Shown piece by piece: positions 6,497 through 59,171 of a stretch of DNA of 64,000 nucleotides (the first letter of the stretch is position 1; each line of letters starts with the position of its first letter). The DNA is from a bacterium. Lineage in GTDB: Bacteria > Patescibacteriota > Minisyncoccia > Phycocordibacterales > UBA5272. A program made the position numbers and the translations under genes. The notes under the pieces were generated by a model, which searched no databases, was not told where the DNA came from, and saw only the letters and a program-made list of their open reading frames with translations. Where the stretch lies: positions 64,910 through 128,909 of the forward strand of contig JAIXVU010000001.1 in NCBI GenBank assembly GCA_027482685.1, given 5' to 3'.

Positions 6497-7675
6497 TCAC
6501 TTCTGCTTCACATCCACGACTGCATTGGCGCGGTTCGGGATGTAGGCGCAACGTTCGTCCGGTTTCAGCTTCACTCCACCGCAGGTTGTTTGCGGAACGT
6601 TCTTGACGACTTTCGGAGTGAAGGACTGAATGAATGGCGCCTTGGGGGCCTCGATCCTGGGTGCAGGGTCGATGGCGACCGGTGGGGTGAACACCGCTGG
6701 CGGGCGCGGAGTACGGAAGACCTGTGTCTCCGTATATCCACATGGGAGCTTCTGAATGTTGTTTCCGAAGCTCTGGACACCGCCTTGATTGCTCACACCC
6801 AGGGCTCCATTCTGACCGTTTGCGGCAATACCGCTGCCGGCTGAACTGCCAACAATGAAGTTTGTGATCACGGCCTGATAGCCGCTCACACGACGTTGCA
6901 TTGTTACAAGATCCCCATCAATCCCGACAACTTCCCAGTTGTGGAAGACGTGAGAGGATCCGGGCACGGGCACGATCTTGGAGACTGTGCCATTTGACCT
7001 GGTCTTGGTGACCAATCCAAGGAAGGTGGCATGAGTTGCCACGACTTCACGGTCTACCTCGACTGTGAAGTCTCCTCCACAGCTCGTGATGATGCTCATC
7101 CCGAGCTGGCTCGCAGACATGATCTGCGGAGGGAGGCCTACCACTGCCGACTGCACTGGCGCGCGCACTGCTTGGTACACAGTGCCGCCGATCGTAGTGG
7201 TGGTCGTGTTGCCCGCAGCGCCGTTCGCTGAAGCTTGACCGAAACCGCCAGCACCCCCAGTTGCACGAACGTTGTTCGTGATCTGGTTGATGTTCTCGTT
7301 CGCGCTTGTGATGCGCGACTGGAGCTCTGTCCGTTGCTGATTGCGTTGTTCCGCAGTCAGTGTCTGATTCGACTCGAGCGAGGTCATCTGGGTCTGGAGG
7401 CTGTTGAGCTCCGCCCGAGCCGCTGCTAGAGCAGCTTGCTGTTGTGCAGCCGTTGCAGCTGCAGCAGTGTTCAATTCCGACGGAGCCGGTTGCGGGGTTG
7501 CGGGTGTTGTCGGCGGATGGTTGGTCTTCGGGCAGACGGGGTCTGCACTGTGAGCCGAACCAGGTCCGTTCGCACGATCCCAGTCAACGCACTCTTGCTG
7601 AGTCCACGCGAAGGCGGGGCTCGCAAAGAGCATGGCCATGACTGCCGCCGCGATGGCGCTGATGATCTTTTCCAT
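6497..7675 (-). CDS. Secreted Pro/Thr/Ala/Gln-rich coiled-coil protein of foreign (high-GC) composition; function unknown
   Basis: There is a signal peptide MEKIISAIAAAVMAMLFASPAFA, a Shine-Dalgarno GGAGAG (plus-strand CTCTCC, 7682-7687) 6 nt upstream of the ATG, and its own promoter and terminator. The gene is about 58-60% GC against a backbone of about 35%. The overlapping antisense ORFs are artefacts of the high GC content. Confidence 0.6.
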   Translation of the reverse strand: MEKIISAIAAAVMAMLFASPAFAWTQQECVDWDRANGPGSAHSADPVCPKTNHPPTTPATPQPAPSELNTAAAATAAQQQAALAAARAELNSLQTQMTSLESNQTLTAEQRNQQRTELQSRITSANENINQITNNVRATGGAGGFGQASANGAAGNTTTTTIGGTVYQAVRAPVQSAVVGLPPQIMSASQLGMSIITSCGGDFTVEVDREVVATHATFLGLVTKTRSNGTVSKIVPVPGSSHVFHNWEVVGIDGDLVTMQRRVSGYQAVITNFIVGSSAGSGIAANGQNGALGVSNQGGVQSFGNNIQKLPCGYTETQVFRTPRPPAVFTPPVAIDPAPRIEAPKAPFIQSFTPKVVKNVPQTTCGGVKLKPDERCAYIPNRANAVVDVKQK

Positions 7676-9156: not shown

Positions 9157-9898
9157 AAAGAGTTATTGCTACCGCATTTGATGCGTTTAAGGATTCTGCG
9201 CGTTTACTTATCGGAATAGAGAGACGAAAATCACACAACTCCTCTGTCATCTTTTGCAAACCTCTACCTTCATTGCCAATAACAATTACTGTATCAGTAT
9301 CAAATTTTGTGGTGTGGAGATTGGTCTCACCAGTCCCTGTTAGTCCATAAATCCAGAAGCTGTCTTTCTTAAGTTTCTCAAGTGTTGTATTAACATTACC
9401 AATTTTTATAATTGGAATAGAGAAGTTCATACCGGATGCACTTTTGATTACACTTCCAGTGAGAGCAACTTGCCCATGGGTTGGCATGAGAATAGCGGAA
9501 GCACCGAATGACACTGCGCTACGAATAATAGCTCCAACATTGTGAGGATCCTCTAATTCATCAAGTACTACGAGGAGTCTAGGAGATGCTGATTTTTTAC
9601 CTAGAATTTTTTCTAGTGAGGTGTAGAGCGTATCAGGAATAAGTGTCGCGCATATCCCTTGATGTACAGTGTCTTTACCGACCATACTCTCTATCTCATG
9701 TATTGTACTTAGTGTGTAAGGTTGGTTATAGGTCTGTAACAGGCTCATTGTGTCAGGATTATCAAGCTCACGTTTAGTGATATAGAGAACATCAATGATT
9801 TGACGAGCTTCACGACGTTGTGCAAGAAGGGCTTCTTTGAGTGGATTTTTACCGTAGAGATATGTATGAGATGACATAGATACTTGCCAGTATAGCAA
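9128..9898 (-). CDS. SpoU/TrmH-family RNA 2'-O-methyltransferase (RlmB-like)
   Basis: A SPOUT C-terminal domain (LVVLDELEDPHNVGAIIRSA...GNEGRGL) follows an N-terminal substrate-binding domain. Confidence 0.75.
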   Translation of the reverse strand: MLYWQVSMSSHTYLYGKNPLKEALLAQRREARQIIDVLYITKRELDNPDTMSLLQTYNQPYTLSTIHEIESMVGKDTVHQGICATLIPDTLYTSLEKILGKKSASPRLLVVLDELEDPHNVGAIIRSAVSFGASAILMPTHGQVALTGSVIKSASGMNFSIPIIKIGNVNTTLEKLKKDSFWIYGLTGTGETNLHTTKFDTDTVIVIGNEGRGLQKMTEELCDFRLSIPISKRAESLNASNAVAITLYEWYKQNKY

Positions 9899-9942
9899 AT
9901 ATATGATGTTTTGAGAAGGTATCTATCTATGGAGTTGGTATC

Positions 9943-9981
9943 TAAGAAACACGCGACGCCGTAGGCGTCGCGTGTTTCTTA
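9943..9981. terminator. GC-rich perfect hairpin (15-18 bp stem, 3-nt loop) acting as a putative bidirectional terminator
   Basis: GAAACACGCGACGCC-GTA-GGCGTCGCGTGTTTC was read directly. It lies downstream of the 10016..10582 gene and upstream of the methyltransferase gene. Confidence 0.5.
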
Positions 9982-10015
9982 TAAACTAGATATCTCACTT
10001 CTCGTGTAACAAATC

Positions 10016-10582
10016 TTAGTATGCTGTAAAGTTAACTGTAGATGGAGGGACGAAGTCCTTTTCACTAACAGTAGCGACTTCACAGTCATAATCCCCTATT
10101 TGTTCTGGGTTCCATATGTTACCTTTTACACTAGTATCTCCAGTTGGTTGACCTTCCGCATTATTTTTAAATTTAAAGCCCATCGTTGGCATAACCGATG
10201 TCCATGTGTAGGTAAATCCACCTGTAACAATGAAGTTTACTATTACTGATTTTCCTTCTGCTTGAGTTGCTATTTCACCTTTTACATTATCACCACGTAT
10301 GTATACGATACCCTTAGTTGATGTGGTGCCTGAGTTTTCGTTAATAGTACATTTATATGCTCCGCCTTGCTTAATAAACTGAGCAAACGACATCTTTTTC
10401 TCAGCAGGCACTGCTTGGGATGTTGTTGATGATAACGTAGTAGTGCTTGTATTTATACTAGGATTGGTAGTCACTTGCTCTACTTCTTCGTTAGTATTGT
10501 TAGAATTTGTATAATAATATCCGCCGAACGCAATTATTCCAATAATGATAATTCCTACGATTGATTTTCCTAGTGTTGTCAT
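10016..10582 (-). CDS. Hypothetical secreted/membrane-anchored protein
   Basis: An N-terminal TM helix (IVGIIIIGIIAFGGYYY) is followed by a Thr/Ser-rich linker and a beta-rich C-terminal domain. No recognisable family. Confidence 0.5.
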   Translation of the reverse strand: MTTLGKSIVGIIIIGIIAFGGYYYTNSNNTNEEVEQVTTNPSINTSTTTLSSTTSQAVPAEKKMSFAQFIKQGGAYKCTINENSGTTSTKGIVYIRGDNVKGEIATQAEGKSVIVNFIVTGGFTYTWTSVMPTMGFKFKNNAEGQPTGDTSVKGNIWNPEQIGDYDCEVATVSEKDFVPPSTVNFTAY

Positions 10583-10770
10583 ACGTATAAGTATACTCTT
10601 TTTAGAAAAAATTATGCAATACCCGTGTGCACGTCTGTATGACCGAGAGATTCTAACTCCGTATCATCTGGTGGTACAAGAGTTGTCATTCCCATGTACA
10701 CAATAAGAATTGCAGTTGCAATAAACGCTAGAATTTTAAGTACACGAAAGATCATAGAATTATAATAAAA

Positions 10771-11079
10771 TTATTTTTTAATAAGCACCTCGACGCTAGT
10801 TGTTGCAATATCTCCGCGTATATTCATAAATCTTATACCAGACGGTGTGATACATACTTCACGTCCTTCATATACCAATTGATATCCCTTTTGTTTACAG
10901 CTATCAAAGTTAGTAACAGTATTTTGTATCGGCAAGCTGACATCTTGAAGTGCGTTACCGCTTGCATAAAGTATCAAAAGCCCACCTATGAGTAGACCTG
11001 CAACGAGACTGTATCCAATAGTTCTAAAAAAATTATTCATAGTGTTACTAGAAATTATTTCAGCATATAAATAGCACAC
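10771..11079 (-). CDS. Hypothetical small membrane protein
   Basis: A single TM helix (LVAGLLIGGLLILYA) is present, and the ORF is in tandem with its neighbours. Confidence 0.4.
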   Translation of the reverse strand: MCYLYAEIISSNTMNNFFRTIGYSLVAGLLIGGLLILYASGNALQDVSLPIQNTVTNFDSCKQKGYQLVYEGREVCITPSGIRFMNIRGDIATTSVEVLIKK

Positions 11080-11513
11080 TTGGTAAATAATTCACTTTCT
11101 TGAAAAGAAATAACATCTGCATATTTTTTGCTGAATACTTCACAATATGCGTTTACTTCGCCATTTTCTTCAACTAGTGCATTATTGCGCAAAGCATCTA
11201 ACCAATCTGATAAACACTCCCTATACACAACACCATTTGGTTCATAAAAAGGACAACGTTTATCAATAACATCTGTTGCATAGGTTACGAACGTAGCATC
11301 TGTTATACCATCGTACAGAGAATTGCCTTTTGTTGTCGTTGCATTTGGGATTGTAGCGGGTGGATTCTTTTTTACTTCCTTTTTGGTTACTGTTGGTGGT
11401 TGTGGGGACTTCTCAGTAGTAAAGTTAATAGTATAAAGTTGCAACCCAAGGATCGCAATCAAAAGAAGTGCGATAAAAGAAAGCAATACCTTAACTGATC
11501 TTTGTGTTCTCAT
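11055..11513 (-). CDS. Hypothetical membrane-anchored protein
   Basis: An N-terminal TM helix (LLSFIALLLIAILGL) and a Cys-containing extracytoplasmic domain are present. The ORF overlaps its neighbour by 25 nt, consistent with an operon. Confidence 0.45.
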   Translation of the reverse strand: MRTQRSVKVLLSFIALLLIAILGLQLYTINFTTEKSPQPPTVTKKEVKKNPPATIPNATTTKGNSLYDGITDATFVTYATDVIDKRCPFYEPNGVVYRECLSDWLDALRNNALVEENGEVNAYCEVFSKKYADVISFQESELFTKCAIYMLK

Positions 11514-11560
11514 AAGCTAATACTATTAGTATACAACTAATAACATTCATCTCTACTATG

Positions 11561-12286
11561 CTACTTTCCTTCAAAGGATACTTCCTTGAAATACCCTTGC
11601 AAAAAAAGTCCTTTTGCAATGTCTGCAGGTTTATTCCTATAGAGTACTAGATAGGTGGCTGGTAGCTCTTCTGCGACTTTTAGAACTCTATGGATATAAC
11701 TTACTGAGGTATCTTTCTCTGCATACATCATATGATGAGTATGTGCTACTGTATAGGCGAGGTCGTTTTCTACATCATCGTACTCCCTTGCATAAAGTCT
11801 AGTAATACTGTGATCGGTTGTAGCTAAAGTAAATGTTTCATCATCAAGGTATGGTGTAATAGTTGTGATGTTAGACTTTTGAAATATAGAAAGTAATGTA
11901 AGAAACTCTTTGTCAGAAAGAGTGTTCTCTAGTATGAAGAAGATTCGTATGTTGTAATCATAGAGCTTTTGAAATAGATGCGACATAACAATTTCATGAT
12001 ATCTAAATATCATTTCACTATCATCATCACTTTCATCTAGCGCGTGAAGGTAGAGCTCATTTATTCCAACTAGTACATCTTGTTTAAGGACAGCCTTATC
12101 AATATGAGTAGTTGCAAAGTACTCATCTATCTCGTCAGTGTGTGATGTTAGATATGTTTCTATTACCTGATCTTTTTCTTCATCTGTAATTTCTAGTAGG
12201 TTCAGTTTTGCTATTTGATCTTTGTATGTATAGAAGTGATTGATACACACAAGGAAGATATTAGGATTTGTATGATCTGATTGCAT
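11561..12286 (-). CDS. Hypothetical acidic cytoplasmic protein
   Basis: A 241-aa ORF with good coding appearance and no recognisable motif. Confidence 0.45.
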   Translation of the reverse strand: MQSDHTNPNIFLVCINHFYTYKDQIAKLNLLEITDEEKDQVIETYLTSHTDEIDEYFATTHIDKAVLKQDVLVGINELYLHALDESDDDSEMIFRYHEIVMSHLFQKLYDYNIRIFFILENTLSDKEFLTLLSIFQKSNITTITPYLDDETFTLATTDHSITRLYAREYDDVENDLAYTVAHTHHMMYAEKDTSVSYIHRVLKVAEELPATYLVLYRNKPADIAKGLFLQGYFKEVSFEGK

Positions 12287-12331
12287 GTGTACGTAGTATA
12301 CTATGCACTATTTTGTTAGATAGGTTTTGTT

Positions 12332-13258
12332 CTACTTTTCTTTATAGAGGTCTTGGTTGAATCCTCCTACCCCCACGTGCTCCATCTGACCATCATCATA
12401 GATAATGTGTTCGTATGGCATACAGTGGATACACCCCCCTGCCTTTGTATCATCATTATATGTTCCTTTTGGACAGGCAAATGTTTGTTCACCTTCACGC
12501 TTAGCTTGTACCCGCATTTCTTTTACTTGTAATGCGACATCAAATACAGCATTAAATGCTTCGTCTTTATTTGGTAGTGTAACTTCTACCATCTTGTCAC
12601 TCTCTAGATACCAGTAACTTGCTTTTGTTACAGTTCGACCTTGAAGAGCATTACAGAGAAGGAGATAGATCGGAAGCTGTAGCGATCCATCCCTCTCCTC
12701 ATGCTTTCCGGTTTTGAAATCTACAATATGGAGTGAGTCAGTATCTGGCAGATATTCTATCCAGTCAACAAGGCCGTTGAGAATGATGTTGTGATCTTCG
12801 CTTAGATAAAAGTTCGGTGCCATCGTCTCACGCTTGAGCTTGATGCATTTGTTCGGTAAGAATCGTGGATTCTTGATAACATTGTTGATCATCTCTTTGC
12901 CACGCATTTTGAATTGTTCTTCTTCATCTAATGATGAGAAGCCACCGATAGGACCAGAGACTTTGAGCCACGCTTCTTCAAAGCGTGCACGCAAGTCTCT
13001 GTCCATACGCTCGTGTGATGGGTAGTTAGCAAGATCTTCCAAGACTTCATGGGCCGCAATACCAAGCGACATATGTGGAGATATGATAGATATTTTCCTC
13101 CCGTTTTTATTTTTATAGACATTGTGCAGGTAGTAGAGTCGCGGACATTTGAGAAAGTCTCCCATAGATGAATGCGACACCCACACAGCTGAGTACTTAT
13201 CAGGCATAGTAAGTAGAGTATAGCAAAAACCTCTACATACTATGAACAATAGCCACAT
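12332..13258 (-). CDS. PD-(D/E)XK nuclease with a C-terminal Cys cluster (Cas4 / AddB-nuclease-domain-like); the likely start is internal (MPDKYS...)
   Basis: The RecB-family motif IVDFKTGKHEE and the Cys set FACPKG...GGCIHC (an Fe-S ligand pattern as in AddB/Cas4) are present. The same DFKTGK motif occurs in the neighbouring helicase-nuclease. Confidence 0.7.
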   Translation of the reverse strand: MWLLFIVCRGFCYTLLTMPDKYSAVWVSHSSMGDFLKCPRLYYLHNVYKNKNGRKISIISPHMSLGIAAHEVLEDLANYPSHERMDRDLRARFEEAWLKVSGPIGGFSSLDEEEQFKMRGKEMINNVIKNPRFLPNKCIKLKRETMAPNFYLSEDHNIILNGLVDWIEYLPDTDSLHIVDFKTGKHEERDGSLQLPIYLLLCNALQGRTVTKASYWYLESDKMVEVTLPNKDEAFNAVFDVALQVKEMRVQAKREGEQTFACPKGTYNDDTKAGGCIHCMPYEHIIYDDGQMEHVGVGGFNQDLYKEK

Positions 13259-13340
13259 AACCTTGACAAAATGCGATTATATATACTGTTTTCGTCTTTC
13301 AAGACAAGACGTTCATTAACAAATGCTCAAGGAGAGCAAT

Positions 13341-13955
13341 ATGCAAAAGCAGATCAAGGAAGTTTCCATCTGGGGCGGTCTGATCATCGAGTGCCTCAAG
13401 AAGATGAAAGCTGTTGCCCTTCAAGGCAATGTCATCGCCAAGCAGGAGCTGAACGGTGTCATCGTTCTCGTCGAAGGCAACTCCGACGTGGACCTGCTGT
13501 TCCGCGACCAACAACGTGCGCAGTCGGGTTACATCGACGGCCTCGTTGGCCCTCATTCGAAAGCAGAACTTTCTGCCGACGACATCGCCAACGATCAGCG
13601 TATCCGTGAAGCCAACGAAGCACGTTGGGCGAAGGAAAGCGCTGAACGGAAAGTGATCCAAGACCAGAAGGAACGTGAATTCTTCGCCGAAATCAGTACC
13701 TGCCCTACGATGGATCGCGACGAAGCCAAGTGGCAAGAAGGCATCAAGGCGCAGAAAGGCGACGGCTACGGCCTCGCGGTCTACACCTACGCCGAGTACT
13801 TGGCACGTCTGATGCAGAAGAAAATGGCCGAGGGCTACAAGCTCGAAGCTGTCGCCGACGAGTGCTCCAACAAGGCCGACATCCCGTGTGGCATCTCGGG
13901 ATTTATGTACGGCTGTGCTGTGTCCTCTCTGGCGAACTGCTGGAAGCACGGCTAA
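13341..13955 (+). CDS. Hypothetical protein of foreign (GC-rich) composition, inserted between the AddA-like gene and its nuclease partner
   Basis: The Shine-Dalgarno AAGGAGAG lies 5 nt before the ATG at 13341, a TTGACA box sits at 13262-13267, and there is a strong terminator at 14091-14123. GC is about 57%. The antisense 252-aa ORF is rejected. Confidence 0.6.
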   Translation: MQKQIKEVSIWGGLIIECLKKMKAVALQGNVIAKQELNGVIVLVEGNSDVDLLFRDQQRAQSGYIDGLVGPHSKAELSADDIANDQRIREANEARWAKESAERKVIQDQKEREFFAEISTCPTMDRDEAKWQEGIKAQKGDGYGLAVYTYAEYLARLMQKKMAEGYKLEAVADECSNKADIPCGISGFMYGCAVSSLANCWKHG

Positions 13956-14090
13956 GAACTCCGTGTCTGGCACAACAAGAAGTACCAACTCAAGGACGAA
14001 GGTGACAAGGCAAACGCCTCTGGCGGTGTCCTGAACCCTGCGCTCCTTTCTTATCAATTGATTTCTTAAGAAATCTCGTCACTGACGAAT

Positions 14091-14123
14091 ACCGCTCGCA
14101 ATATCTTGCGAGCGGTTCTTTTA
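14091..14123 (+). terminator. Intrinsic terminator (CCGCTCGCAA-TATC-TTGCGAGCGG followed by TTCTTTT)
   Basis: Read directly from the sequence, 135 nt downstream of the stop at 13955. Confidence 0.6.
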
Positions 14124-14278
14124 TGTCCTACTACTCACACAACTTTTCTATGAGAATTGCCTTGCACAGTGCGACGGCGCGAGCAGAGCAAAAAGCTAGC
14201 AAGCTTTTATGCGTGCAATTCGATGGAAAAGTTAAAAAAGAATTTCACGAAATGTTCATTGTATCGAATCACTTAAAT

Positions 14279-14593
14279 CTATTTCGAAATATCCAAAACA
14301 TCTTGCACGTTCCAGTTATTTTTCTTTAGTTCATTTATCGCATCTATGATCTCTTGCTGATTGCTACCATATACCTTAAACGTCTGCTTGCTACTATTTA
14401 CTACTACAACCATTTCAAAAGTTTCGTTATTTAGTTTTTTTAACTTCACGCTTTTCCCACGCGCCTTTACGTTAGCTTCTATAACACCAGGAGAAACGTA
14501 GGCCTGTATTTTTTTAAGAATCTTAAGGATATCTTTCGCACCTTCTATTGTCGTTGTGTGCGTTCCTCGTTCGTTGATGTGCATCTTTTCCAT
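14279..14593 (-). CDS. Hypothetical small protein (104 aa), likely co-transcribed with the helicase-nuclease
   Basis: It starts 6 nt after the upstream gene's stop, and its composition is like that of the backbone genome. Confidence 0.45.
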   Translation of the reverse strand: MEKMHINERGTHTTTIEGAKDILKILKKIQAYVSPGVIEANVKARGKSVKLKKLNNETFEMVVVVNSSKQTFKVYGSNQQEIIDAINELKKNNWNVQDVLDISK

Positions 14594-14598
14594 AATAC

Positions 14599-17500
14599 TT
14601 ATATTCTACCCTCTATCAAATCATCTTCAAACTGTAACAACCCCTTATAACTTTCGCCATAGGCACTGAGATCAGGCACGATATCAAGGGTTACTATTTT
14701 TTTGTATACGGCTTGTACTAGTTTCTTAGTACGTTCTATTTCTGCTTCGTCAGCATCAAGTACTAGTTCTGTGAACTTCTTCTCTTCTACGAACCAAAGT
14801 GAGAGTTTACCAACGGGGTAGTCTCTGTAATGAATAGAATTCTCAAGGAGAAGTTTGTATACAATGAGCTGTTGGCGATACTTATGAAGCTTGATTTTGT
14901 CACTATCAGTTTTTCCTTCATCCCACCGAGTAAATGCTTTACCGGTTTTAAAATCTACAACATGGTATCGCTTATCTCGTAGTTGTAGTAAATCAAGTTT
15001 TCCGATGATATGAGCTTCCCCTATCATCACACCTTCATCACGCATATCTACCTCTATCTTGTCGTCTTGTGTGAACATACCATCAGTCATCTGATAGAGA
15101 CTTGCTAGCACTTCTTCTCCACGAGAGGATTGCTTGGTGACTTCATACGACGGCAATCTACCACGCGAGAGCTCTTTCTTAAAAATTATCATGAGATGTT
15201 CCATAGATGGATGCTTGCCATCGTTATACTTTGGATACATAACTAACTCTTCAAGTGCTTTGTGTATTGCGGATCCATACACACCGGACGGGTTCATCGG
15301 TTGAGGAAATCGTAAAAGATTCTGCTCAATGAAGTATAACGGCCCTCCGTCTTTGATATTAGTGAAGTTATTAAGGTGAGTAACTGGCATCTTGTAATTC
15401 TGTACGAGACGCTTAAGAAGAGCCCACTCATTCTCCTTAAATGGTGTTTTATAAAGCGAAAGCGCACTCTCATGAGCCTCAACCGGCATATCAGATGTTG
15501 CAAGTAACTCACCAGCTGGCAGATATCTCACAGGAGTATCATGGCTCGTTAGATGAAGTGTATGCTTAGCGCGAGTTATCGCAACATAGAGCAATCGGAT
15601 GAAGTCGTCCTCAGTATCTCCAGCTGGTTGCATGAGTGGTACAAGAGGTGATGGGAGTGGGGCGATGTTGGTCTTTGGAGCTCGTGTCCATGAGCTATCG
15701 TGGACTGATATCAGATACACCACCTCAAATTCTAAACCCTTTGACGCATGTGCAGTCATCAGTTGTACGGAGTTCTCATGCTTCATAAATGGTGACTCAC
15801 TAACAAGAGCAATCTCATGATCTATATGCATCTGAACGAATGGTTCTACATCAGTCACATAAAGCGTCTCCCCTTCTTTCCAGACACGAAGAGATTCGAT
15901 AAATGTCTTAAGTGATGCAAGGAATGCGACGTACGTCGTCGGACTCTTCTGTATAAGTTCTCTAGAAAAATAATAATTCTTGAAACCGCTTCCTTCCATG
16001 AATTTTTCTAAAATATGTTCAAGTGGTGTGGATTCACTTTCAATTGTTAACTGAGCAAAGAGTTTGCCGAGAGTTTGTAGTTTAGTATCTGTTGTTGTTA
16101 TGAGCATCTCAGTCCATGTCATATGTGACTCTTTAGCAGTAACAGCAAGAGTAAACAATGTCTCACGGTCAATCTCGAAGCATGTATGCGATAGAAGATG
16201 TGGCAAAATGTGATCCTTGGTACTTTCATTACGAAGAACTGATGAGATGTATGATGAGAACTCTATGAGAATCTTCACATGAGGCTCATCAAACACATTT
16301 GCCTTCTTTATATACTCATACGGAATGTCTGCTCTATCTAAGTATGGGAGTATCGCACGTAGCTCTTTATGTCCACGACTAAGTATCGCTATCTCCTGTG
16401 CTGGAATACCGGCATCTAGTTGTGCGCGGATACTACGAGCAATATGTGTGTATTCTTCTACATCAGAGGATGATTGTAGTATGTGTATACCCCCACCTTT
16501 TAATGAACTATTTTTTGCGGTTAGAATTTTTTGGATATCATCATATTTGTTTTCTAGCCTTCCTTTACCTTGTGTGATGAGTGTACGAGCAAGATCAAGG
16601 ATAGGCTGTGTTGAGCGATAGTTTTTATCAAGCACTATGGTTGTTACGTCTTTGTAGAGAGCATCTCGGAAGCGCATTATATGTGAAATCTCCGCACCTT
16701 GGAACTTGTATATCGCCTGATCATCATCTCCTACTACACAGACATTTGGTCGCCCTTCGTGTACTCTGTTACTGCTAATGTGACGCACTAGTAACATCTG
16801 AGCCTCATTGGTATCTTGGAACTCATCTATCATAATGTACTGATATTGTTCTTCAAGACTATTACGAAGTATCTCGTTATCGGCAAGTGCATGTACCACC
16901 TCAATTATCATATCGTCGTAGTCATAGAGTGCACGTTTATACATCTCCTCGCTGTATTTTGTATAGAGCTCTGCAACCGCGAATATCTTTTCTTTGTTAT
17001 GACCATCTTTGAGTATCCATACACTATCTACTTTTACCATAAACTTGTCTCTCCAGTCAGCAAGCGGCTCAGTCTTTTCTAACACTTCAGATGCTTCTAT
17101 CGCAGAAGTAAGCGTTGAAGCTAGGTAGAGTGATGTAGTACCTGCGAGATATTGTAATGAGTTGGCAATTTCGGTTAATACGTGTAGGTTTTTTATTGAT
17201 AATCTTTCTGGCCAAGTGGTAAGAATAGTATTTATGCTCTCATATTCCTCAGGAAGTTTACGTATAACTGCAAGGTATTCTTCTGCTGTATATCCGTAAC
17301 TTTTGATATGTTTTATTCTATCCTTTACATGACTTAGATATGAGTAGCCCATCTCTGGGTGAAAGCTCGCGAGCGGATGTCCGTGTGGAAGCGTGGCAAA
17401 AATCGACTGGAGTATCTCTGCGCGTGCTACGTCATTTGCCTGTGAGAAGTGTGATGCTTTCCAAAAATATTCTGGGAATCTCGCTATAATATGATTACAA

Positions 17501-17796
17501 AATCCATGAAAGGTAAATATTGAAACTCTATACGCATCCGCTCCAATTAACCCATGCAATCGTTCTCGCATATTAGTAGCGCCATTATCTGTAAAAGTAA
17601 GACATAGAATATTCTTAGGCGACACGTCACGAGAGCGTAAGATATTACCAACGCGGAGTGATAACAGCTCTGTTTTACCACTTCCTGGACCTGCTATTAC
17701 CATCACAGGACCATCTATTGTCTCAACAGCTAATCGTTGTTCGTTGTTAAGTGTGGCGAGACGTGCATCAAATGATTGTGGTTTACTTTTTTCCAT
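14599..17796 (-). CDS. UvrD/PcrA-like superfamily-1 helicase fused to a C-terminal PD-(D/E)XK nuclease (AddA-like helicase-nuclease)
   Basis: Walker A is AGPGSGKTELL, helicase motifs run through the protein, and the C-terminal nuclease motif is HVVDFKTGKA. The length is 1065 aa. Confidence 0.8.
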   Translation of the reverse strand: MEKSKPQSFDARLATLNNEQRLAVETIDGPVMVIAGPGSGKTELLSLRVGNILRSRDVSPKNILCLTFTDNGATNMRERLHGLIGADAYRVSIFTFHGFCNHIIARFPEYFWKASHFSQANDVARAEILQSIFATLPHGHPLASFHPEMGYSYLSHVKDRIKHIKSYGYTAEEYLAVIRKLPEEYESINTILTTWPERLSIKNLHVLTEIANSLQYLAGTTSLYLASTLTSAIEASEVLEKTEPLADWRDKFMVKVDSVWILKDGHNKEKIFAVAELYTKYSEEMYKRALYDYDDMIIEVVHALADNEILRNSLEEQYQYIMIDEFQDTNEAQMLLVRHISSNRVHEGRPNVCVVGDDDQAIYKFQGAEISHIMRFRDALYKDVTTIVLDKNYRSTQPILDLARTLITQGKGRLENKYDDIQKILTAKNSSLKGGGIHILQSSSDVEEYTHIARSIRAQLDAGIPAQEIAILSRGHKELRAILPYLDRADIPYEYIKKANVFDEPHVKILIEFSSYISSVLRNESTKDHILPHLLSHTCFEIDRETLFTLAVTAKESHMTWTEMLITTTDTKLQTLGKLFAQLTIESESTPLEHILEKFMEGSGFKNYYFSRELIQKSPTTYVAFLASLKTFIESLRVWKEGETLYVTDVEPFVQMHIDHEIALVSESPFMKHENSVQLMTAHASKGLEFEVVYLISVHDSSWTRAPKTNIAPLPSPLVPLMQPAGDTEDDFIRLLYVAITRAKHTLHLTSHDTPVRYLPAGELLATSDMPVEAHESALSLYKTPFKENEWALLKRLVQNYKMPVTHLNNFTNIKDGGPLYFIEQNLLRFPQPMNPSGVYGSAIHKALEELVMYPKYNDGKHPSMEHLMIIFKKELSRGRLPSYEVTKQSSRGEEVLASLYQMTDGMFTQDDKIEVDMRDEGVMIGEAHIIGKLDLLQLRDKRYHVVDFKTGKAFTRWDEGKTDSDKIKLHKYRQQLIVYKLLLENSIHYRDYPVGKLSLWFVEEKKFTELVLDADEAEIERTKKLVQAVYKKIVTLDIVPDLSAYGESYKGLLQFEDDLIEGRI

Positions 17797-18596: not shown

Positions 18597-19040
18597 ATGT
18601 CATGGGGCAAGTTCCAAAGCACGGGTGATCAAGTAGAAGCTCTTGTTTCTCGAAAGCAAGAGAACAGTCTGTGGGCAAGTTTAGACGGCATAACAAAGGT
18701 GCTTCTTGTACTCTATGTTGCCTTGCTGACGGTTCTCTTTGCTGGTATAAGTATGTACATGCTCTACCTCCTGAGCATCTCAAGAGTTTTCGGGGTTAGT
18801 GCGCTTCAAGTCACATCGCTCGTTGCTGTACCTCTTGTTGTGATAGGTCTCTGGCGTATCATCAGGAATAATAAGAGAGTTCTTCACCCAAAGGTGATCG
18901 GACTTGTCTCCGTCGTTTGCCTGTTCAATACATACATCTTGTATGTCAATAACTGGGTACCGATGTGGGCATATCTTGTACTATGTGCAATCTGCATTGC
19001 ATGTATGCTAGTGGCTGCTTACTTCAACAAACGGGCATAA
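18597..19040 (+). CDS. Hypothetical polytopic small membrane protein
   Basis: Three or four hydrophobic helices are present. GC is higher than the backbone, and a GC-rich terminator follows. Confidence 0.45.
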   Translation: MSWGKFQSTGDQVEALVSRKQENSLWASLDGITKVLLVLYVALLTVLFAGISMYMLYLLSISRVFGVSALQVTSLVAVPLVVIGLWRIIRNNKRVLHPKVIGLVSVVCLFNTYILYVNNWVPMWAYLVLCAICIACMLVAAYFNKRA

Positions 19041-19110: not shown

Positions 19111-19265
19111 ATTGATATCTAAAATTTGCAAAGCCATGGCCCTGTACAAGCGTATTTGGTACAAATAATATAGAACTTGACAGAATAAATATAGTAAGTA
19201 TAATATATATCGGATTGTGTCAAGTTCTATGTTTTTCAACCAACGATCACGAAAGGATCCTAACC

Positions 19266-19784
19266 ATGCGCTCACCGACTCAATGGCTGGCCGACCTCAT
19301 CGAGCCCCTCCTCCGTCGCATTGGCAGCTCAAGTCCGCTAAATGCAATCGCGACAAGCGAAAACTTCAAAGGCGTCGACAAAAAAACCAAAAGTCTTGAG
19401 AAGGGCTTCGCCACTTTTGTGAATGGCTTCGAAATCTGGTCTTTTGTCCTCGGATGGATCATCCTGTTAGTGGGGGTCGTCGCTTTTGTGATGAACATCA
19501 CCGGCGTCGTCCCTATCTATGCGGTAGGACTCTCAGGACTTTTCCTGATGATCCTTGGTTCGCTTCCTGTGATGACAGTGAACTTCTGCCGGTTCATGTT
19601 TGCGGGAATGAAATGGCACTTACTGTCTTTTATTCCAGCAGCTTGTATGTTCGCTTATGCGTTGCAGTTCATCCAGACTAAGGGAATTGCTGATATCAAT
19701 GCTGTGCAGAGCATTGTCATGTTCAACGCCTTCCTCGGTGCGCTGTGGACACTGAGATGGTTCTATAACTTCATCAGAAAGTGA
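19266..19784 (+). CDS. Hypothetical polytopic membrane protein (start chosen at the internal Met, MRSPTQ...)
   Basis: AAAGGATCC lies 5 nt upstream of the ATG at 19266. Four hydrophobic helices are present, GC is about 52%, and a GC-rich terminator follows. Confidence 0.5.
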   Translation: MRSPTQWLADLIEPLLRRIGSSSPLNAIATSENFKGVDKKTKSLEKGFATFVNGFEIWSFVLGWIILLVGVVAFVMNITGVVPIYAVGLSGLFLMILGSLPVMTVNFCRFMFAGMKWHLLSFIPAACMFAYALQFIQTKGIADINAVQSIVMFNAFLGALWTLRWFYNFIRK

Positions 19785-36170: not shown

Positions 36171-38492
36171 TTATACTTTTGCGTACAGTTTCTCTTGGAA
36201 TTTGAAGAAAATTGAACGAATCAAATCAATATCACCAAGTACATCTTTTGCATCCTCAAGTGACTGATATTTGTTTGTGAGCAATATAGGTAATTTCTCT
36301 TGGTCTAATTCTTCTACACCTGTTTCGATATACTTACTTAATACGAACTCAATAAACTCTTTTTGTTTATCATTAAGAGATTCAAAAATAGTTTCCTGAG
36401 ATGTTTCCACTCTTATATCTCTTGGTATTGGTTTAATATCACTATTAAATACATATTCCAACACATCAAAAAGATCACTATTCTCAGCATCAATCAATTT
36501 CTGTAATGTAGTTAATTCGTCTTTTCCATATCCTGCTTCGTCTAGTTTTTCTAGTAAACTTTTTCTAGTTATTGGATTACTCCAAATTTCTCGTAATTCT
36601 TCTTCACTTGTAAAGAATTTAGGTAATGTCCCAAACAAGTTTTGTAAAAACTCTTCCACAGAAATAGGTTTACCGTCTGCACCCCAAAATGAAGTTGCAA
36701 TCATGTGCTGTATTTCACGCTCTTTCCCATCTCGTAACTTAATCTTAAGTTTCTTATTCGGTTCAGTTGGTGGTTCTGGTGGAAAAGGTGGTTCACCCTC
36801 TACTCCTTTTGGTGGTTTAGGTTCCGTAGGTTCGTCATCTACTGGACTGATTGGTTCACCATCCCACTCAGGATCTGCAAAATGATGATAGGCATCTACA
36901 AAGTCATAAATAGTGAAGAACTCCTTACCGTCAAATAAACGTGTACCACGCCCCACAATTTGCTTAAACTCAATCATAGAGTTCACTGGTCGCATTAGAA
37001 CAATATTACGAATATTTCTAGCATCTACTCCAGTTGAAAGTTTCTGTGAAGTGGTGAGTATGGTCGGTATAGTTTTTTCGTTATCTTGGAACTCTCTCAA
37101 GAACTGTTCTCCTATTTCTCCGTCGTTAGCAGTAACACGCACACAATAATTTGGATCAGTGCTTTTCTTGTACTGATTAATCAAATCTCGAACAGCAGCC
37201 GCATGATCTTGAGTAGCACAGAAAACAATAGCTTTTTCATTTTGATCAGCTTCATCCATAAATACTTTCACACGCTTTTCCTCTCTCGCTTTAATTTCGA
37301 TTATCTTATTAAAATCAGGTTCGGTATAAAGTTTTCCTTCCTCGATTTCCCCTTCGATGATTTGGTCATCACTTGTATAAATATAATCGTCTAATGTTGT
37401 CTTAATACGCTTAACCTTAAAAGGAGTAAGGAAACCATCATTTATGCCTTCTTTTAGAGAATAAATATATACTGGCTCACCAAAGTATTTATACGTATCT
37501 ACATTGTCCTTACGTTTTGGTGTGGCTGTTAAACCTAATTGCACAGCAGGAGAAAAATATTCCAAGATTCCTCTCCAGTTTCCTTCGTCGTTTGCACCAC
37601 CACGATGACATTCGTCTATAATAATAAAATCAAAGTAATCAGGTGAGTATTCTCCGAAGTATGGGGCAGGATTACCATCTACATCTTTACCACTCATAAA
37701 GGTTTGAAAGATAGTAAAGAATATAGAGCCATTAGTAGGTACACTTCCTTTTTTACTTATCTCTTTTGGATTGATACGTACAAGAGAGTCTTCTGGAAAT
37801 GAAGAGAATGAGTTATATGCTTGGTCAGCTAGTATGTTTCTATCTGCTAAAAATAGAATACGAGGACGACGAGAACCATCACGCTTTAAGTTCCATCTTG
37901 TCTGAAAAAGTTTCCATGCAATCTGAAAAGCAATAGCTGTTTTACCTGTACCAGTGGCTAATGTTAGTAAGATACGATCCTTATTATTTGCAACAGATTC
38001 AAGAACATTTTTTACTGCTATTTCTTGATAGTAACGTAATTGCCAAGATCCACTCTTATCTTCAAATGGAACAGAACTAAACTTTTCCCTCCATTCATTT
38101 TGAACTGCAAAAGTTTTATTCCAAAGTTCGTCAGGAGAAAGATACTCAGAAACTAAACCCTCAATACCTGTTTTCATACAGATACTGTATATTTCTTTTC
38201 CATTTGTGGAATAGGTTGTTTCTATGTTTAATTTCTCTGCGTACTGCTTGGCTTGTGCAACACCTTCACCAACCCCTATGTTTGCACTCTTTGCCTCAAC
38301 CACAGCCAATTTTATGCCTTTGTAGACCAATACATAATCAGCAGTAAGTAACTTTCCTCTTATACCTCCAGTTTGAATTTTACCAGCAGTAATATTGTAT
38401 TCACGGAGTATTTTAGATCCTTCAATAACACCCCAACCACAATCTTTTAGCTTTGGATCAATTAGCTCTGCCCTTGTTTCAGATTCGTTCAT
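36171..38492 (-). CDS. hsdR: Type I restriction enzyme R subunit (HsdR), compact form
   Basis: The N-terminal HsdR nuclease domain (AVVEAKS), the SF2 motifs LATGTGKT and IIIDECHRG, and a position at the end of the hsdM-hsdS operon all fit HsdR. Confidence 0.8.
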   Translation of the reverse strand: MNESETRAELIDPKLKDCGWGVIEGSKILREYNITAGKIQTGGIRGKLLTADYVLVYKGIKLAVVEAKSANIGVGEGVAQAKQYAEKLNIETTYSTNGKEIYSICMKTGIEGLVSEYLSPDELWNKTFAVQNEWREKFSSVPFEDKSGSWQLRYYQEIAVKNVLESVANNKDRILLTLATGTGKTAIAFQIAWKLFQTRWNLKRDGSRRPRILFLADRNILADQAYNSFSSFPEDSLVRINPKEISKKGSVPTNGSIFFTIFQTFMSGKDVDGNPAPYFGEYSPDYFDFIIIDECHRGGANDEGNWRGILEYFSPAVQLGLTATPKRKDNVDTYKYFGEPVYIYSLKEGINDGFLTPFKVKRIKTTLDDYIYTSDDQIIEGEIEEGKLYTEPDFNKIIEIKAREEKRVKVFMDEADQNEKAIVFCATQDHAAAVRDLINQYKKSTDPNYCVRVTANDGEIGEQFLREFQDNEKTIPTILTTSQKLSTGVDARNIRNIVLMRPVNSMIEFKQIVGRGTRLFDGKEFFTIYDFVDAYHHFADPEWDGEPISPVDDEPTEPKPPKGVEGEPPFPPEPPTEPNKKLKIKLRDGKEREIQHMIATSFWGADGKPISVEEFLQNLFGTLPKFFTSEEELREIWSNPITRKSLLEKLDEAGYGKDELTTLQKLIDAENSDLFDVLEYVFNSDIKPIPRDIRVETSQETIFESLNDKQKEFIEFVLSKYIETGVEELDQEKLPILLTNKYQSLEDAKDVLGDIDLIRSIFFKFQEKLYAKV

Positions 38493-38513
38493 AATCTTGA
38501 CATTATAGCACTT

Positions 38514-39680
38514 TTATAGTTCGCCGTTAAATGCTTTTTGAAGAATACTTTTCTTAAGCTCTTCTAAGTCATTTAATTTTTGTTCGTAGATTGATTCAAG
38601 TCTTTTTGTTTCATTTGAAAGTGATTCGAGTTTTTTAACAATAAGTTCTTGCTCCTTTATTGATTTTGGAAAGCTTATTCTAATAAGTTTTAAATTTTTA
38701 AGAATAATTCTTCTTATTGCAACTCCTGTTTTCATCCCCACGGCCTCTTGTAAAAATTCAGGATTTTTCAAAACATATTTCAAAAAAGACGAATCAATGA
38801 TTTTTCTTTTAGGTCTTATGATTGCCAACGAAGACAACACTACAAAATCTTTTTCAAAATCAACAAGGGACACTTTTCCCACAGTCCCATCTTTTGAAAA
38901 AAGAAGATCCCCTTGATTTGGTTTACATCCATTTTTAAGTAAGGATTCATAATCTTTTTTATTTATAAACTTACACCTTTCAAAATTAATTATATCGTTA
39001 TCAATATCTCTTACTGTTATATACGGATATTCATCTTCATTAGATGAATCTGGGGAAAAATGACTTCCGTCCGTAATTTGTTCACAAACATCCATAAGCT
39101 CAACATTTTCCCAATCGCCTCCTTTATTTGTAAACACACTCTGTAAATAACTCTCAAAAAGCTCCTTAGCATTTTTTAGATTTTGTTCAGCATTATCTTT
39201 TACTTTAGATATGTTAGTAAAAGATTCCTCTAAAATAGATACAATGCGTTGTTGTTCTTTAAGTGGAGGAAGTACGATTGGATATTCTTTAATCATCGGC
39301 ACAGTTAATTGTGGTATTGATGACCCACTATGGGTAAAATCAATACCACTAATTACAAACTTAAGAAAAGTTAAACTAACAACATCTGTTTTAGGTATTA
39401 TAACTATGAGTCGCACCACTGGATAAAAAGGTTCCTGTCTTATTTCAGAGTAACCAATTGTACCTCTTGCTGAAATAGTTATGCTTGGTTTTGTTACTCT
39501 TGCGACATTTGTGTAACCATATAATCCCTTATTTTTCTCACCATTTGAAAAGATGGGGATATTATAAAAATCTGTTTTAACTTTAAATGTGTTATTTTTG
39601 TCTACATCACCACCAGCAAAAAGCTCTTCACAAACATCTCCTAACTTTTTTATTTCCCAGTTAGTTTTCATAATCGCCAT
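38514..39680 (-). CDS. hsdS: Type I restriction-modification specificity subunit (HsdS)
   Basis: Two target-recognition-domain halves are separated by the conserved coiled-coil repeats (LKEQQRIVSILE...; KEQELIVKKLESL). Confidence 0.75.
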   Translation of the reverse strand: MAIMKTNWEIKKLGDVCEELFAGGDVDKNNTFKVKTDFYNIPIFSNGEKNKGLYGYTNVARVTKPSITISARGTIGYSEIRQEPFYPVVRLIVIIPKTDVVSLTFLKFVISGIDFTHSGSSIPQLTVPMIKEYPIVLPPLKEQQRIVSILEESFTNISKVKDNAEQNLKNAKELFESYLQSVFTNKGGDWENVELMDVCEQITDGSHFSPDSSNEDEYPYITVRDIDNDIINFERCKFINKKDYESLLKNGCKPNQGDLLFSKDGTVGKVSLVDFEKDFVVLSSLAIIRPKRKIIDSSFLKYVLKNPEFLQEAVGMKTGVAIRRIILKNLKLIRISFPKSIKEQELIVKKLESLSNETKRLESIYEQKLNDLEELKKSILQKAFNGEL

Positions 39681-41106
39681 AGTTACTCTTTATATACTTT
39701 CTCTGCTTCACATATTCAATTAAAAGATTGTAAAACATCTCCTCTTCCTTGTCCTCAGCAACTTTAATAGAGTCACGACCGCTCTCGTCTTTAGTAATTA
39801 AGTACTTCCCCCAGTAAACATTAGAAGTTGTATTATCTGGTACCTTAATACCAAAAGACTTCAGCATGGTTACTGAGTATCTCCCGTAGGGCATTCTTTG
39901 GTCCATTTTTATAGTAGCGTTTTTTATAATTTCTAGCTTCCTTAAGAAAACATCAGTATTTGAAAAACTGTGTATAGTAACCTTTACCGCTATATCGAAT
40001 ATCTTTTGAAAACTATCCGCAAAATGGTCTTCATGATAACTACCTTTTTTTAACTCAAGTAGCTGAAATCTCGTTGCTTTTAGTAATGACCTCAAATTCA
40101 TAATTTCACTATTTATTGCTCTTGAAAAGATATGCCAGAGAAAAAGCTTAATGTACCCACTATTCCCAATAGAAGAACTTAAATTTGGTTCTTCATTCTT
40201 AATACTCATAGCAATTTGCTCAACTGTAGCGAGAATTGCTTTTTTATTATCAAAATAAAATGGACTAACAGTAAAAAACTTGTCCATGTACCCAGAGAAA
40301 TCTGTCTCTGCTCCATACTTATGGTGAAAAAAGTTTTTTAGGTTTGTGTAATCTGCAACAATAACTATTAAATCAAAACCAAATTTATTTTCATGCTCCT
40401 TTTCAAAGTAGGCGGATAATATATTTAATATCCTAAATACGTGCTCAGGGTCTATTCTGTCTAAGTCATCTAAAACAAGAATACTTTTTTTGGTATCTTT
40501 TTGAAGAGTGATTTTTTCTTTCAAGAGATGACTTAGAAAATCTGTTTCAGAAATGTTTTTTGCTTTAATCTGCTCAACATATTTTTCTACTAATGCTTTT
40601 TCTCCGCCTTTATATTCATGCTTAAATTCTTGAAATTCTTTATCTAATTCGAGTAAGTCCTTTAGTGGTCTACCGAGTTTAGTAAGAGAGGATGAAATTG
40701 GGTCTGGAATTGCATCTCCATAGTTTTCTGCAATAGAAAGAGTTGACTGTAAGACAGAATTTACAGTAAATCTATTTCTTGCCCAAGAATAAAAAAGAAG
40801 TGCTGATTCTTTTATTCCATCAACTTTATTACCTTGTAAAATATCCTTATTCTTTTTTAGTAACTCCACAAGAATGTCATATTTTATAAGCTCTAAAATA
40901 TCCTCATTACTGTTAATCTGATAGTTAATAGGATATAAATGAAACACATCATACTTATCTTTTCTGGATTCAAAGAATTCATTTAAGAAAAAAGTCTTTC
41001 CAATGCCGAAAGGTCCAGAGAAAAAAACTCTTGAATTATTTTCCATAACTAAAAAATCTTCAAAAACTTTTTCTACTGTATCAATTGGTATTTTAATATC
41101 TGCCAT
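39661..41106 (-). CDS. KAP-family P-loop NTPase embedded in the Type I R-M operon
   Basis: Walker A is SGPFGIGKT. The KAP-type Walker B is ILVLDDLDRIDPEHVF. The gene overlaps hsdS by 20 nt and starts 6 nt after hsdM. Confidence 0.65.
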   Translation of the reverse strand: MADIKIPIDTVEKVFEDFLVMENNSRVFFSGPFGIGKTFFLNEFFESRKDKYDVFHLYPINYQINSNEDILELIKYDILVELLKKNKDILQGNKVDGIKESALLFYSWARNRFTVNSVLQSTLSIAENYGDAIPDPISSSLTKLGRPLKDLLELDKEFQEFKHEYKGGEKALVEKYVEQIKAKNISETDFLSHLLKEKITLQKDTKKSILVLDDLDRIDPEHVFRILNILSAYFEKEHENKFGFDLIVIVADYTNLKNFFHHKYGAETDFSGYMDKFFTVSPFYFDNKKAILATVEQIAMSIKNEEPNLSSSIGNSGYIKLFLWHIFSRAINSEIMNLRSLLKATRFQLLELKKGSYHEDHFADSFQKIFDIAVKVTIHSFSNTDVFLRKLEIIKNATIKMDQRMPYGRYSVTMLKSFGIKVPDNTTSNVYWGKYLITKDESGRDSIKVAEDKEEEMFYNLLIEYVKQRKYIKSNYGDYEN

Positions 41107-41111
41107 AGAAA

Positions 41112-42578: not shown

Positions 42579-42591
42579 AATTATATCACTT

Positions 42592-58447: not shown

Positions 58448-58517
58448 TGTATGCAAATAATGCCCACATCCGATGGATGTGGGCATTTGAAAGATGGACT
58501 TTTCTACTGTGCTATTA

Positions 58518-59171
58518 CTACACACGCATAGTCCAGTTTGTGTTATAACGTTCGGGGTATCGTGGCGTAACCCCGCTATAGAATGCGCGGATATGTTCCA
58601 TGACACTTGCATGATCTTCTGTCGGAGTGATATATCCTCCGATACCTACGTAGCGACAACGGTAGTCGACATATCCGTAGGCAATCGGCACATGTGCCAT
58701 CCGTGCAATATGGTAGAAACCGCTCCTCCATACAGGGGTAAAAGATCTTGTTCCTTCTGGTGCAACCATGACCATCAATGGTCCATCATGTGTTGCAATA
58801 TAATCTGCCATACAGAGAACCTTATCCCCTCGTACATTGCGATTGACGGGAATCATTCCAAGTTTTGTCATGATCGCATGAAATGGGAACCGTGCCAACT
58901 GCTTCTTGCCCATCCAGCGCATTGGTAGACCCAGTTGCAGTCCAGCCAAAAGCATGATCACCACATCGATGTTGCTCGTATGCGGAGCGGCGATCACAAC
59001 GCACTTCTCGATAGATGATGGGAGAATGTTCCTAGCTTCCCATCCCATGATCGACAAGATACGATGAGCGATCCACCCAAGAATGGTGTTGACCCGAGAT
59101 GATTCAAAGATTGTTTTCATCGTACAAAAACCCTTATGATTGAACGTAGGACTTTGCCTACAAAAGAACAA
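58518..59171 (-). CDS. Lysophospholipid (1-acyl-sn-glycerol-3-phosphate) acyltransferase, PlsC family
   Basis: The HxxxxD motif (AAPHTSNIDVV) and the PEGTR motif (APEGTRS) are present. Confidence 0.7.
   Translation of the reverse strand: MFFCRQSPTFNHKGFCTMKTIFESSRVNTILGWIAHRILSIMGWEARNILPSSIEKCVVIAAPHTSNIDVVIMLLAGLQLGLPMRWMGKKQLARFPFHAIMTKLGMIPVNRNVRGDKVLCMADYIATHDGPLMVMVAPEGTRSFTPVWRSGFYHIARMAHVPIAYGYVDYRCRYVGIGGYITPTEDHASVMEHIRAFYSGVTPRYPERYNTNWTMRV

Follow-up and report, generated by a model that had tools for sequence, protein, structure and literature searches.

The cassette and its gene

We examined a 64,000-nucleotide stretch of a Patescibacteriota genome (contig JAIXVU010000001.1 of assembly GCA_027482685.1, positions 64,910 to 128,909), hereafter the window, and report on a GC-rich single-gene cassette within it. 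The cassette gene lies on the plus strand between three minus-strand genes: a PD-(D/E)XK or Cas4-like nuclease gene (12332..13258) on one side, and on the other a conserved 104-amino acid (aa) open reading frame (ORF) termed orf104 (14279..14593) and an AddA/RecB-like UvrD helicase gene (14599..17796). An original prediction, made from the nucleotide sequence, had placed a gene with a 204-aa product and a GC content of about 57% at 13341..13955 and had regarded it as a foreign insertion. ORF calling and translation confirmed this coding sequence, which comprises 204 codons and a TAA stop. Its GC content is 0.559 and its GC content at third codon positions (GC3) is 0.707, compared with means of 0.381 and 0.305 (standard deviation 0.076 for GC3) for the 57 other sizeable ORFs in the window, making its GC3 the most extreme of all window ORFs (z = 5.3). 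The GC-rich tract extends past 13955 to approximately 14058.

The gene is equipped with expression signals, most of which had been correctly recognised. A Shine-Dalgarno site, AAGGAGAG, is located at 13329..13336 (+), 4 nt 5' of the ATG, and an intrinsic terminator is found at 14091..14123 (+), with a hairpin (14091-14116) of 11 perfect pairs and a 4-nt loop followed by TCTTTT. A smaller hairpin accompanies that of the terminator within the 61-nt stretch 14075-14135, which has a folding energy of -23.8 kcal/mol (z = -6.3 relative to shuffled sequences). The proposed TTGACA box is present (13264-13269), but there is no -10 hexamer 16-18 nt from it, the closest being a TATACT (13283-13288) at 13 nt. 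The resulting promoter-like element (13264..13288, +) has non-canonical spacing, and a sigma-70 promoter scan made no call at the TTGACA box.

The database version of the product (P0002) is 210 aa long and starts at the ATG at 13323, and an exact database look-up of the 204-aa product returned no match. We prefer the start at 13341 as the probable one, because the Shine-Dalgarno site and the N-termini of homologues agree on it. A 252-aa ORF lies antisense to the cassette gene (13299..14057). Its frame is fully open only in the GC-rich alleles (the window and homologous loci L138, L139 and L140) and is interrupted in AT-richer homologues (L053, L056 and L057). We rejected it as a gene, since the open frame follows GC-rich composition only, as had originally been supposed.

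A Tad4-family protein with an additional N-terminal domain

Although the product had been described as lacking any recognisable motif, a Pfam search returned a single match to PF25186 (Type I Thoeris inhibitor Tad4; E = 5e-16). The 204-aa ORF scores 59.4 bits against a curated cut-off of 25 bits, with residues 127-204 aligned to profile positions 5-83 of 113, so that the first two-thirds of the domain are encoded from 13719 (+) onwards. The complete domain (1-113) is not present in one product, as the ORF stops at profile position 83; the protein obtained by reading through the stop scores 84.4 bits over profile positions 5-106. The same region matches PHROG 9822 (function not known; E = 8e-17). 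A tblastn search of phage genomes identified 32 records with 36-48% identity over residues 102-237, with matches in 29 Bacillus phages, Mycobacterium phage Kumao and one Xanthomonas phage. The Bacillus phages among the matches listed have genomes of ~150-165 kb (Bcp1, Bc431v3, Deep Blue, JBP901, Bobb). Bcp1 is a member of the Herelleviridae, and its 109-aa protein Bcp1_225 is 46% identical to residues 133-237, that is, across the stop (E = 1e-29), and itself matches PF25186 with 145.6 bits (profile positions 1-112). Based on these similarities, the window gene is assigned to the Tad4 family (PF25186).

The original study of Tad4, and the source of its mechanism, is reportedly that of Yirmiya et al. 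in Cell 2025. Phage Tad4 is described in later accounts as binding ThsB directly, with a flexible loop entering the active site of the Toll/interleukin-1 receptor (TIR) domain (PMC13402655; bioRxiv 10.64898/2026.01.28.702374). By homology, the intact ancestor of the window protein would be expected to have had anti-ThsB activity.

An AlphaFold2 model of P0001, an intact homologue that is 83% identical to the window protein, has high confidence (predicted local distance difference test score, 94.5). In it, an alpha/beta domain (residues ~1-75) is followed by a helix of 40 residues (79-118), and the C-terminal domain, which is helical, spans residues 128-236. Using these limits, the N-terminal domain (aa 1-75) and long helix (aa 79-118) would be encoded in the window at 13341-13565 and 13575-13694, respectively, both on the plus strand. 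A search of BFVD matched the C-terminal domain to the Kumao protein (E = 2.9e-9) and also gave alignments of 56-70 columns to uncharacterised phage proteins of 60-75 aa, such as ICP1 ORF66 (probability 1.0, target TM-score 0.67-0.78). The latter probably correspond to the N-terminal domain, the aligned query residues not being reported. This domain is rare, as only 37 cluster representatives match it in 1.8 billion proteins; many of the proteins matched are ~200-270 aa in length, the size of two-domain proteins.

A premature stop removes the C-terminal tail

Reading through the TAA at 13953..13955 yields 37 further in-frame codons, to 14067, before a second TAA at 14068-14070. This gene remnant (13956..14070, +) encodes the rest of the Tad4 domain (ELRVWHNKKYQLKDEGDKANASGGVLNPALLS...) and has a GC3 of 0.595. 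In the codon alignment, the position of the stop is occupied by GAA in L138, L139 and L057, by GAG in L053 and L056 and by GAC in L140, and each of the 19 homologues in the protein alignment has E or D at this place. Since the aligned codons are GAA, GAG and GAC, the stop arose by one G>T change, from an ancestral Glu codon GAA. The 96 nt 3' of the stop are identical to L139 at 94 positions (97.9%), and there has therefore been essentially no decay since the stop arose.

The tail beyond the stop is the most conserved portion of the family. Across 77 homologues, the best conserved stretch, LRxWHNxxxQxxxEGxxANxxGGVLNPALL, falls entirely after the stop, and of the lost positions two are invariant and about 16 nearly so; the remnant itself retains the near-invariant L207, R208, W210, H211, N212, Q216, E220, G221, A224, N225 and G228 to L236. 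In the P0001 model, helices 204-215, 220-227 and 233-236 all lie beyond the stop. Among the best database homologues, most align over 94-98% of the read-through protein and many are 232-243 aa long; none of the intact homologues ends at the position of the stop. We interpret the annotated 204-aa product as a truncation of a ~240-aa protein. As the best conserved motif and the final three helices are deleted by the stop, the window copy is most likely a very recent pseudogene, or at best would encode a crippled protein.

A different explanation of the short ORF would be an alternative genetic code or programmed read-through at TAA. We rejected this, since TAA terminates 37 of the 58 window ORFs and is thus an ordinary stop codon here. 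Recoding known in Patescibacteria concerns UGA. One homologue on a 674-kb Gracilibacteria contig has been called both as 208 aa (P0113) and as 240 aa (P0124), a difference that fits the use of UGA as a sense codon in Gracilibacteria; hence not all short database entries of the family are genuine truncations.

The truncated protein could also still be functional, either as a short anti-TIR inhibitor or by way of its N-terminal domain, the stop having been tolerated or selected. In keeping with this, the truncated ORF, at 59 bits, still exceeds the Pfam Tad4 cut-off; its N-terminal domain, long helix and conserved GISGFMYGCAVS segment are retained, and its Shine-Dalgarno site and terminator are intact. 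However, the 33-38 residues that are lost hold the invariant and nearly invariant positions noted above and three helices of a compact domain, UGA recoding accounts for the length of P0113, the one short entry that was examined, and the promoter spacer of the truncated copy measures 13 nt rather than the 16-17 nt of most homologues. We consider retained function unlikely.

Given that the genome is a metagenome assembly, the stop might instead be absent from most cells, owing to an error of sequencing or of the consensus, or because only a minority of the population carries it, the organism having an intact 242-aa gene. The stop is a single-base change and the frame 3' of it is perfectly kept and nearly identical to L139, both of which would be expected under such a scenario. 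Against this, a contig from the Logan assembly of SRR16126879 (L001) is 100% identical to the window over 9687-14290, including the stop, and the base at 13953 is the same as in the NCBI contig, which is 129,980 bp long. Absence of the stop from most cells is accordingly regarded as improbable, to about the same degree as a functional short protein. The Logan contig also bears on whether a GC-rich fragment of another organism was mis-joined into an AT-rich contig, as the sharp GC boundaries in the metagenome-assembled genome (MAG) might suggest. Both junctions are reproduced in this independent assembler's contig, the ORF and its AT-rich flanking promoter, Shine-Dalgarno site and terminator make up a coherent unit, and a sharply bounded GC pattern of the same kind is seen in L139, which comes from another sample. 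A chimeric assembly is, in our estimation, extremely unlikely.

The cassette occupies a variable intergenic interval

Related loci were surveyed in genome and metagenome collections, resulting in ~90 loci, 24 of which keep the synteny of helicase and nuclease. No Tad4 homologue was found anywhere in the ~90 related loci, and the cassette gene is absent from between helicase and nuclease in all 24 syntenic relatives. Homologs at this position in relatives, which would have spoken against an insertion, are thus found at 0 of 24 loci, and together with the compositional signal this bears out the original prediction of a foreign insertion and shows the segment to be lineage-specific. The closest syntenic locus, L005, has the order HD, helicase, orf104, nuclease ... 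SpoU, HI0933. Homology by blastn to L005, L141, L145, L178, L181 and others ends at 13225-13231 and resumes at 14280-14286; these breaks at ~13231 and ~14280 therefore delimit ~1.05 kb of lineage-specific DNA (13232..14279, not assigned to a strand), which reaches from the nuclease gene to orf104 and encloses the whole cassette.

The distance from the helicase end to the nuclease start is highly variable among the 24 syntenic loci, with gaps of 6 bp (L175), 82, 222 and 344 bp and up to 6167 bp. At the 344-bp locus (L145), orf104 and the nuclease gene are separated by ~35 bp. Gaps of intermediate size contain diverse orphan ORFs, mostly on the opposite strand, and Pfam searches of ten such ORFs (from L172, L146, L181, L178, L008, L141, L169, L174 and L157) gave no significant match. 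The intervals in relatives are at 13724-14351 in L005, 4769-6000 in L141, 4797-6000 in L172, 4954-6000 in L178, 3591-6000 in L146, 13196-19361 in L010 and 13292-16598 in L039. Two small ORF types recur between L172 and L161, and the large ORFs in the 6167-bp interval of L010 look, by eye, like NrdD/NrdG and NifS/NifU-type genes. The variable gap and its varied ORFs point to insertion at a natural hotspot, in which the cassette sits, and indicate that helicase and nuclease do not form an obligatory transcription unit. The suggestion that the insertion may disrupt an operon is not upheld, given gaps of 6 to 6167 bp with opposite-strand ORFs in relatives and a promoter-like site belonging to the nuclease gene itself.

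Target-site duplications, for which the original prediction had suggested a search at about 13270 and about 14125, were looked for and none was convincing, nor was a terminal inverted repeat found at the cassette borders, where only short, low-identity chance repeats occur. Of the flanking inverted repeats, the best has 12 nt at 92%, one of its arms (13237-13248) falling inside the annotated nuclease ORF, in DNA that is shared with no relative. No integrase or transposase is present among the neighbouring genes, the sole recombinase in the window (42592-44004) being 28 kb from the cassette. The only tRNAs in the window are at 32.9 kb and 60.0 kb, with none at the cassette, and no Rfam element or known RNA was found at the site. 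Even the best relatives share only 73-75% identity in helicase or nuclease, and none closer was found in which the site is empty; the insertion can therefore be dated only loosely.

Homologous cassettes and origin of the gene

Intact two-domain homologues occur as single genes amid housekeeping genes at unrelated loci of other Patescibacteria. The L053 copy neighbours gyrB and a C39 peptidase gene, on a contig whose GyrB is 88% identical to named Yonathbacteria proteins, and its GC content is 0.49 compared with 0.47 for the host. The L056 copy has a class I aminoacyl-tRNA synthetase gene and tsaD as neighbours (GC 0.48 vs 0.42), the L057 copy vanY and an M10 peptidase gene (0.36 vs 0.34), and a further intact copy is that on the 674-kb Gracilibacteria contig. 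In the clade closest to the window gene, GC contents relative to flanks are 0.53 vs 0.48 in L138, 0.59 vs 0.49 in L140 and 0.56 vs 0.34 in L139. The expression signals are shared as well. TTGACA followed after 16 or 17 nt by TATAAT, TATACT or a similar -10 is found in the L138, L139, L140, L053 and L056 cassettes, with no clear -10 in L057; AAGGAGA is conserved 5' of all aligned homologues, and the homologous cassettes have hairpin terminators analogous to that of the window.

The nearest nucleotide match is L139 (1767-2618 of a Logan contig from SRR25018348), which is 88.6% identical to window positions 13558-14047 (490 nt). It encodes an intact 283-aa allele with a different N-terminus, which has sharp GC borders in an otherwise unrelated AT-rich contig (34% GC) and adjoins a 720-aa Prim-Pol/PriCT primase gene. 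At the L139 locus the gene may be carried by a mobile element, and recombination between alleles is suggested by the mosaic pattern of identity between the window gene and L139. Among IMG/VR viral contigs 265 relatives were detected; most of the 80 best loci match only as a stand-alone domain, while some are two-domain forms with 44-48% identity, and several of the contigs bearing these have 50-57% GC. One two-domain form, L060, is encoded by a phage with terminase and portal genes.

These distributions were weighed against a native, vertically inherited gene with GC richness intrinsic to the family. In every case, homologous genes do have a somewhat higher GC content than their flanks, the excess being 2 to 22 percentage points. 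Yet GC3 of homologues ranges from 0.27 to 0.74 and roughly follows the host where the gene is resident (0.357 vs 0.339 in L057; 0.492 vs 0.466 in L053), the gene is missing from this locus in all syntenic relatives, copies in other Patescibacteria occupy unrelated loci, and an unrelated contig carries an allele with 88.6% nucleotide identity, which is at odds with vertical descent. We therefore regard a native origin as very unlikely. The gene appears instead to have spread repeatedly and horizontally, as a self-expressed unit, among Patescibacteria and their mobile elements, and the window copy probably arrived recently, from a source with about 50-57% GC.

Probable recent acquisition and inactivation

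Taken together, the favoured interpretation, to which we assign a probability of roughly 0.8, is that the cassette carries a recently acquired Tad4-family gene, placed in a variable intergenic hotspot and recently inactivated by a nonsense mutation. Under this interpretation a ~1-kb single-gene unit, consisting of TTGACA box, Shine-Dalgarno site, ORF and terminator, would have been acquired horizontally from a higher-GC source, either a phage or another Patescibacterium. It would have landed on the opposite strand in the hotspot between helicase/orf104 and nuclease of a Yonathbacteria-like Patescibacterium. The ancestral protein would have been ~240 aa long, with the rare N-terminal alpha/beta domain, the long helix and the C-terminal helical Tad4 domain, until a single G>T turned Glu codon 205 (GAA) into TAA and removed the last three helices together with the most conserved motif of the domain.

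Several points weigh against this interpretation. Neither a target-site duplication nor an inverted repeat, integrase or tRNA accounts for the entry of the DNA, and the best match reaches only 83% identity in protein sequence and 88.6% in DNA (490 nt). The stop might represent a consensus error of the metagenome assembly or an allele carried by a minority, and the two assemblies in which it is identical may share reads. The conserved GI(T/S)GFMYG loop is retained in the truncated ORF and thus leaves room for residual function. Inhibition of ThsB by the two-domain Patescibacteria proteins is presumed from homology, and the Protein Data Bank holds no Tad4 structure against which the inhibitory loop could be checked.

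Comparison with known anti-defence genes

The window gene belongs to a family that is already known, and what sets it apart from the characterised phage proteins is its extra N-terminal region, its residence in a cellular genome and its truncation. Like phage Tad4 (PF25186, e.g. Bcp1 gp225), the read-through product contains the homologous region (aa 127-237, 46% identity), and the mode of action described for the phage proteins, ThsB TIR binding with a loop blocking the active site (PMC13402655), may by analogy be presumed for it. Phage Tad4 is, however, a stand-alone protein of ~109 aa, whereas the window protein has an extra N-terminal region of ~125 aa. The former is phage-encoded with a complete domain, whereas the window copy is found in a cellular Patescibacteria chromosome, next to chromosomal genes rather than those of a phage or mobile element, and a nonsense codon ends its domain at profile position 83 of 113. 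Other ThsB or ThsA blockers, namely Tad3, Tad5, Tad6 and Tad7, are likewise described as inserting a loop into the NAD+-processing site, and differ from Tad4 in sequence and structure according to the cited descriptions (PMC13402655; bioRxiv 10.64898/2026.01.28.702374).

The two-domain Tad4-like proteins (P0004 in L053, P0001 and P0124, and that of phage L060) share the architecture of the window gene, the nearest being 75-83% identical to the window protein. They resemble it in being monocistronic, with a TTGACA promoter, AAGGAGA and a hairpin terminator, and usually in being opposite in strand to the neighbouring housekeeping genes. They differ in being intact (236-243 aa) and at unrelated loci, with resident copies near the GC content of the host, whereas the window copy is truncated and a GC outlier. 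The unit also resembles phage morons and solo anti-defence genes, which are single genes with signals of their own and a distinct composition, located between unrelated genes. Unlike phage morons, it is in the chromosome of an ultra-small bacterium, with no prophage, integrase or attachment site adjoining.

An orphan GC-rich cassette can thus be interpreted as a recently transferred and recently broken anti-defence gene, marking an insertion hotspot beside the recombination and repair genes of an ultra-small bacterium. Solo, self-expressed two-domain Tad4-like genes are found in several Patescibacteria lineages (Yonathbacteria, Gracilibacteria and others). Patescibacteria, also known as the candidate phyla radiation (CPR), live attached to other microbes and depend on them. 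If the intact copies are functional, anti-immune proteins deemed to be phage tools would also be kept by cellular episymbionts, a hint to which the window copy adds little because it is truncated. A more far-reaching and doubtful proposal is that, on repeated occasions, Patescibacteria have domesticated TIR inhibitors of the phage Tad4 type as stand-alone genes of the chromosome, the observation pointing to it being that intact solo copies recur in this group. Were this so, the inhibitors might be used against the TIR or Thoeris-like immunity of host cells or to control the bacteria's own TIR proteins, the two-domain architecture would be the cellular or CPR-phage version of the Tad4 inhibitor, and the window copy would be a domesticated gene caught just after its acquisition and loss. 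No paper linking Tad4 or Thoeris inhibitors to Patescibacteria was found in the literature collection that was searched.

Flanking genes and other compositional outliers

The helicase was identified by Pfam matches to UvrD-helicase (205 bits), UvrD_C (128 bits) and, in a C-terminal nuclease domain, PDDEXK_1 (49.5 bits), and is 68-73% identical to proteins from Candidatus Yonathbacteria and Paceibacterota MAGs. Copies of orf104 that are 70-80% identical lie downstream of the helicase gene in L005, L141, L145, L172 and L178. Other chromosomal neighbours recognised by Pfam are an HD hydrolase, a SpoU methylase and an HI0933 flavoprotein, and the neighbouring genes show synteny with Paceibacteria MAGs. 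PADLOC returned only generic UvrD/GajB-like and Cas4-like matches among the neighbours, which we did not take as a defence system, and its weak match of orf104 to HamA (E = 3e-4) was not taken as evidence of defence either.

The nuclease matches PDDEXK_1 (73 bits) and Cas_Cas4. Its homologues align only from residues 13-18 onward, and the true start is probably the ATG at 13207, at the conserved MPDKYSAVWVSHSS, which would make the annotation 17 codons too long. The promoter-like site of the nuclease gene, TTCATA-N18-TATACT, runs from 13246 to 13217 on the minus strand and would allow hardly any leader. This site is overlapped by an inverted repeat of 14 nt (13205-13218 / 13231-13244, 93% complementary).

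Further compositional outliers are present elsewhere in the window. A low-GC block (28-33%) with strongly negative GC skew at 36171-44004 (-) is a defence island, comprising a type I restriction-modification system (HsdR, 36171-38492; HsdS, 38514-39680; HsdM, 41112-42578), a KAP-family NTPase gene between HsdS and HsdM (39661-41106) and, at its edge, the large serine recombinase gene (42592-44004), all on the minus strand. A first GC-rich cassette at 6497-7675 (-) consists of a 392-aa ORF with a GC content of 0.589 and a GC3 of 0.649 (z = 4.5). This ORF has no Pfam, PHROG or PADLOC match and no homologue in syntenic relatives L002-L010 and L039, of which L005 reaches 3.7 kb past HI0933. Three small plus-strand ORFs also show raised GC3 relative to the host mean of 0.305, at 18597-19040 (0.48), 19215-19784 (0.595) and 58494-58928 (0.52), none with a Pfam match. 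Two of them lie directly next to the HD gene, on the far side of the helicase gene cluster from the Tad4 cassette, and all three may be further foreign single-gene inserts.

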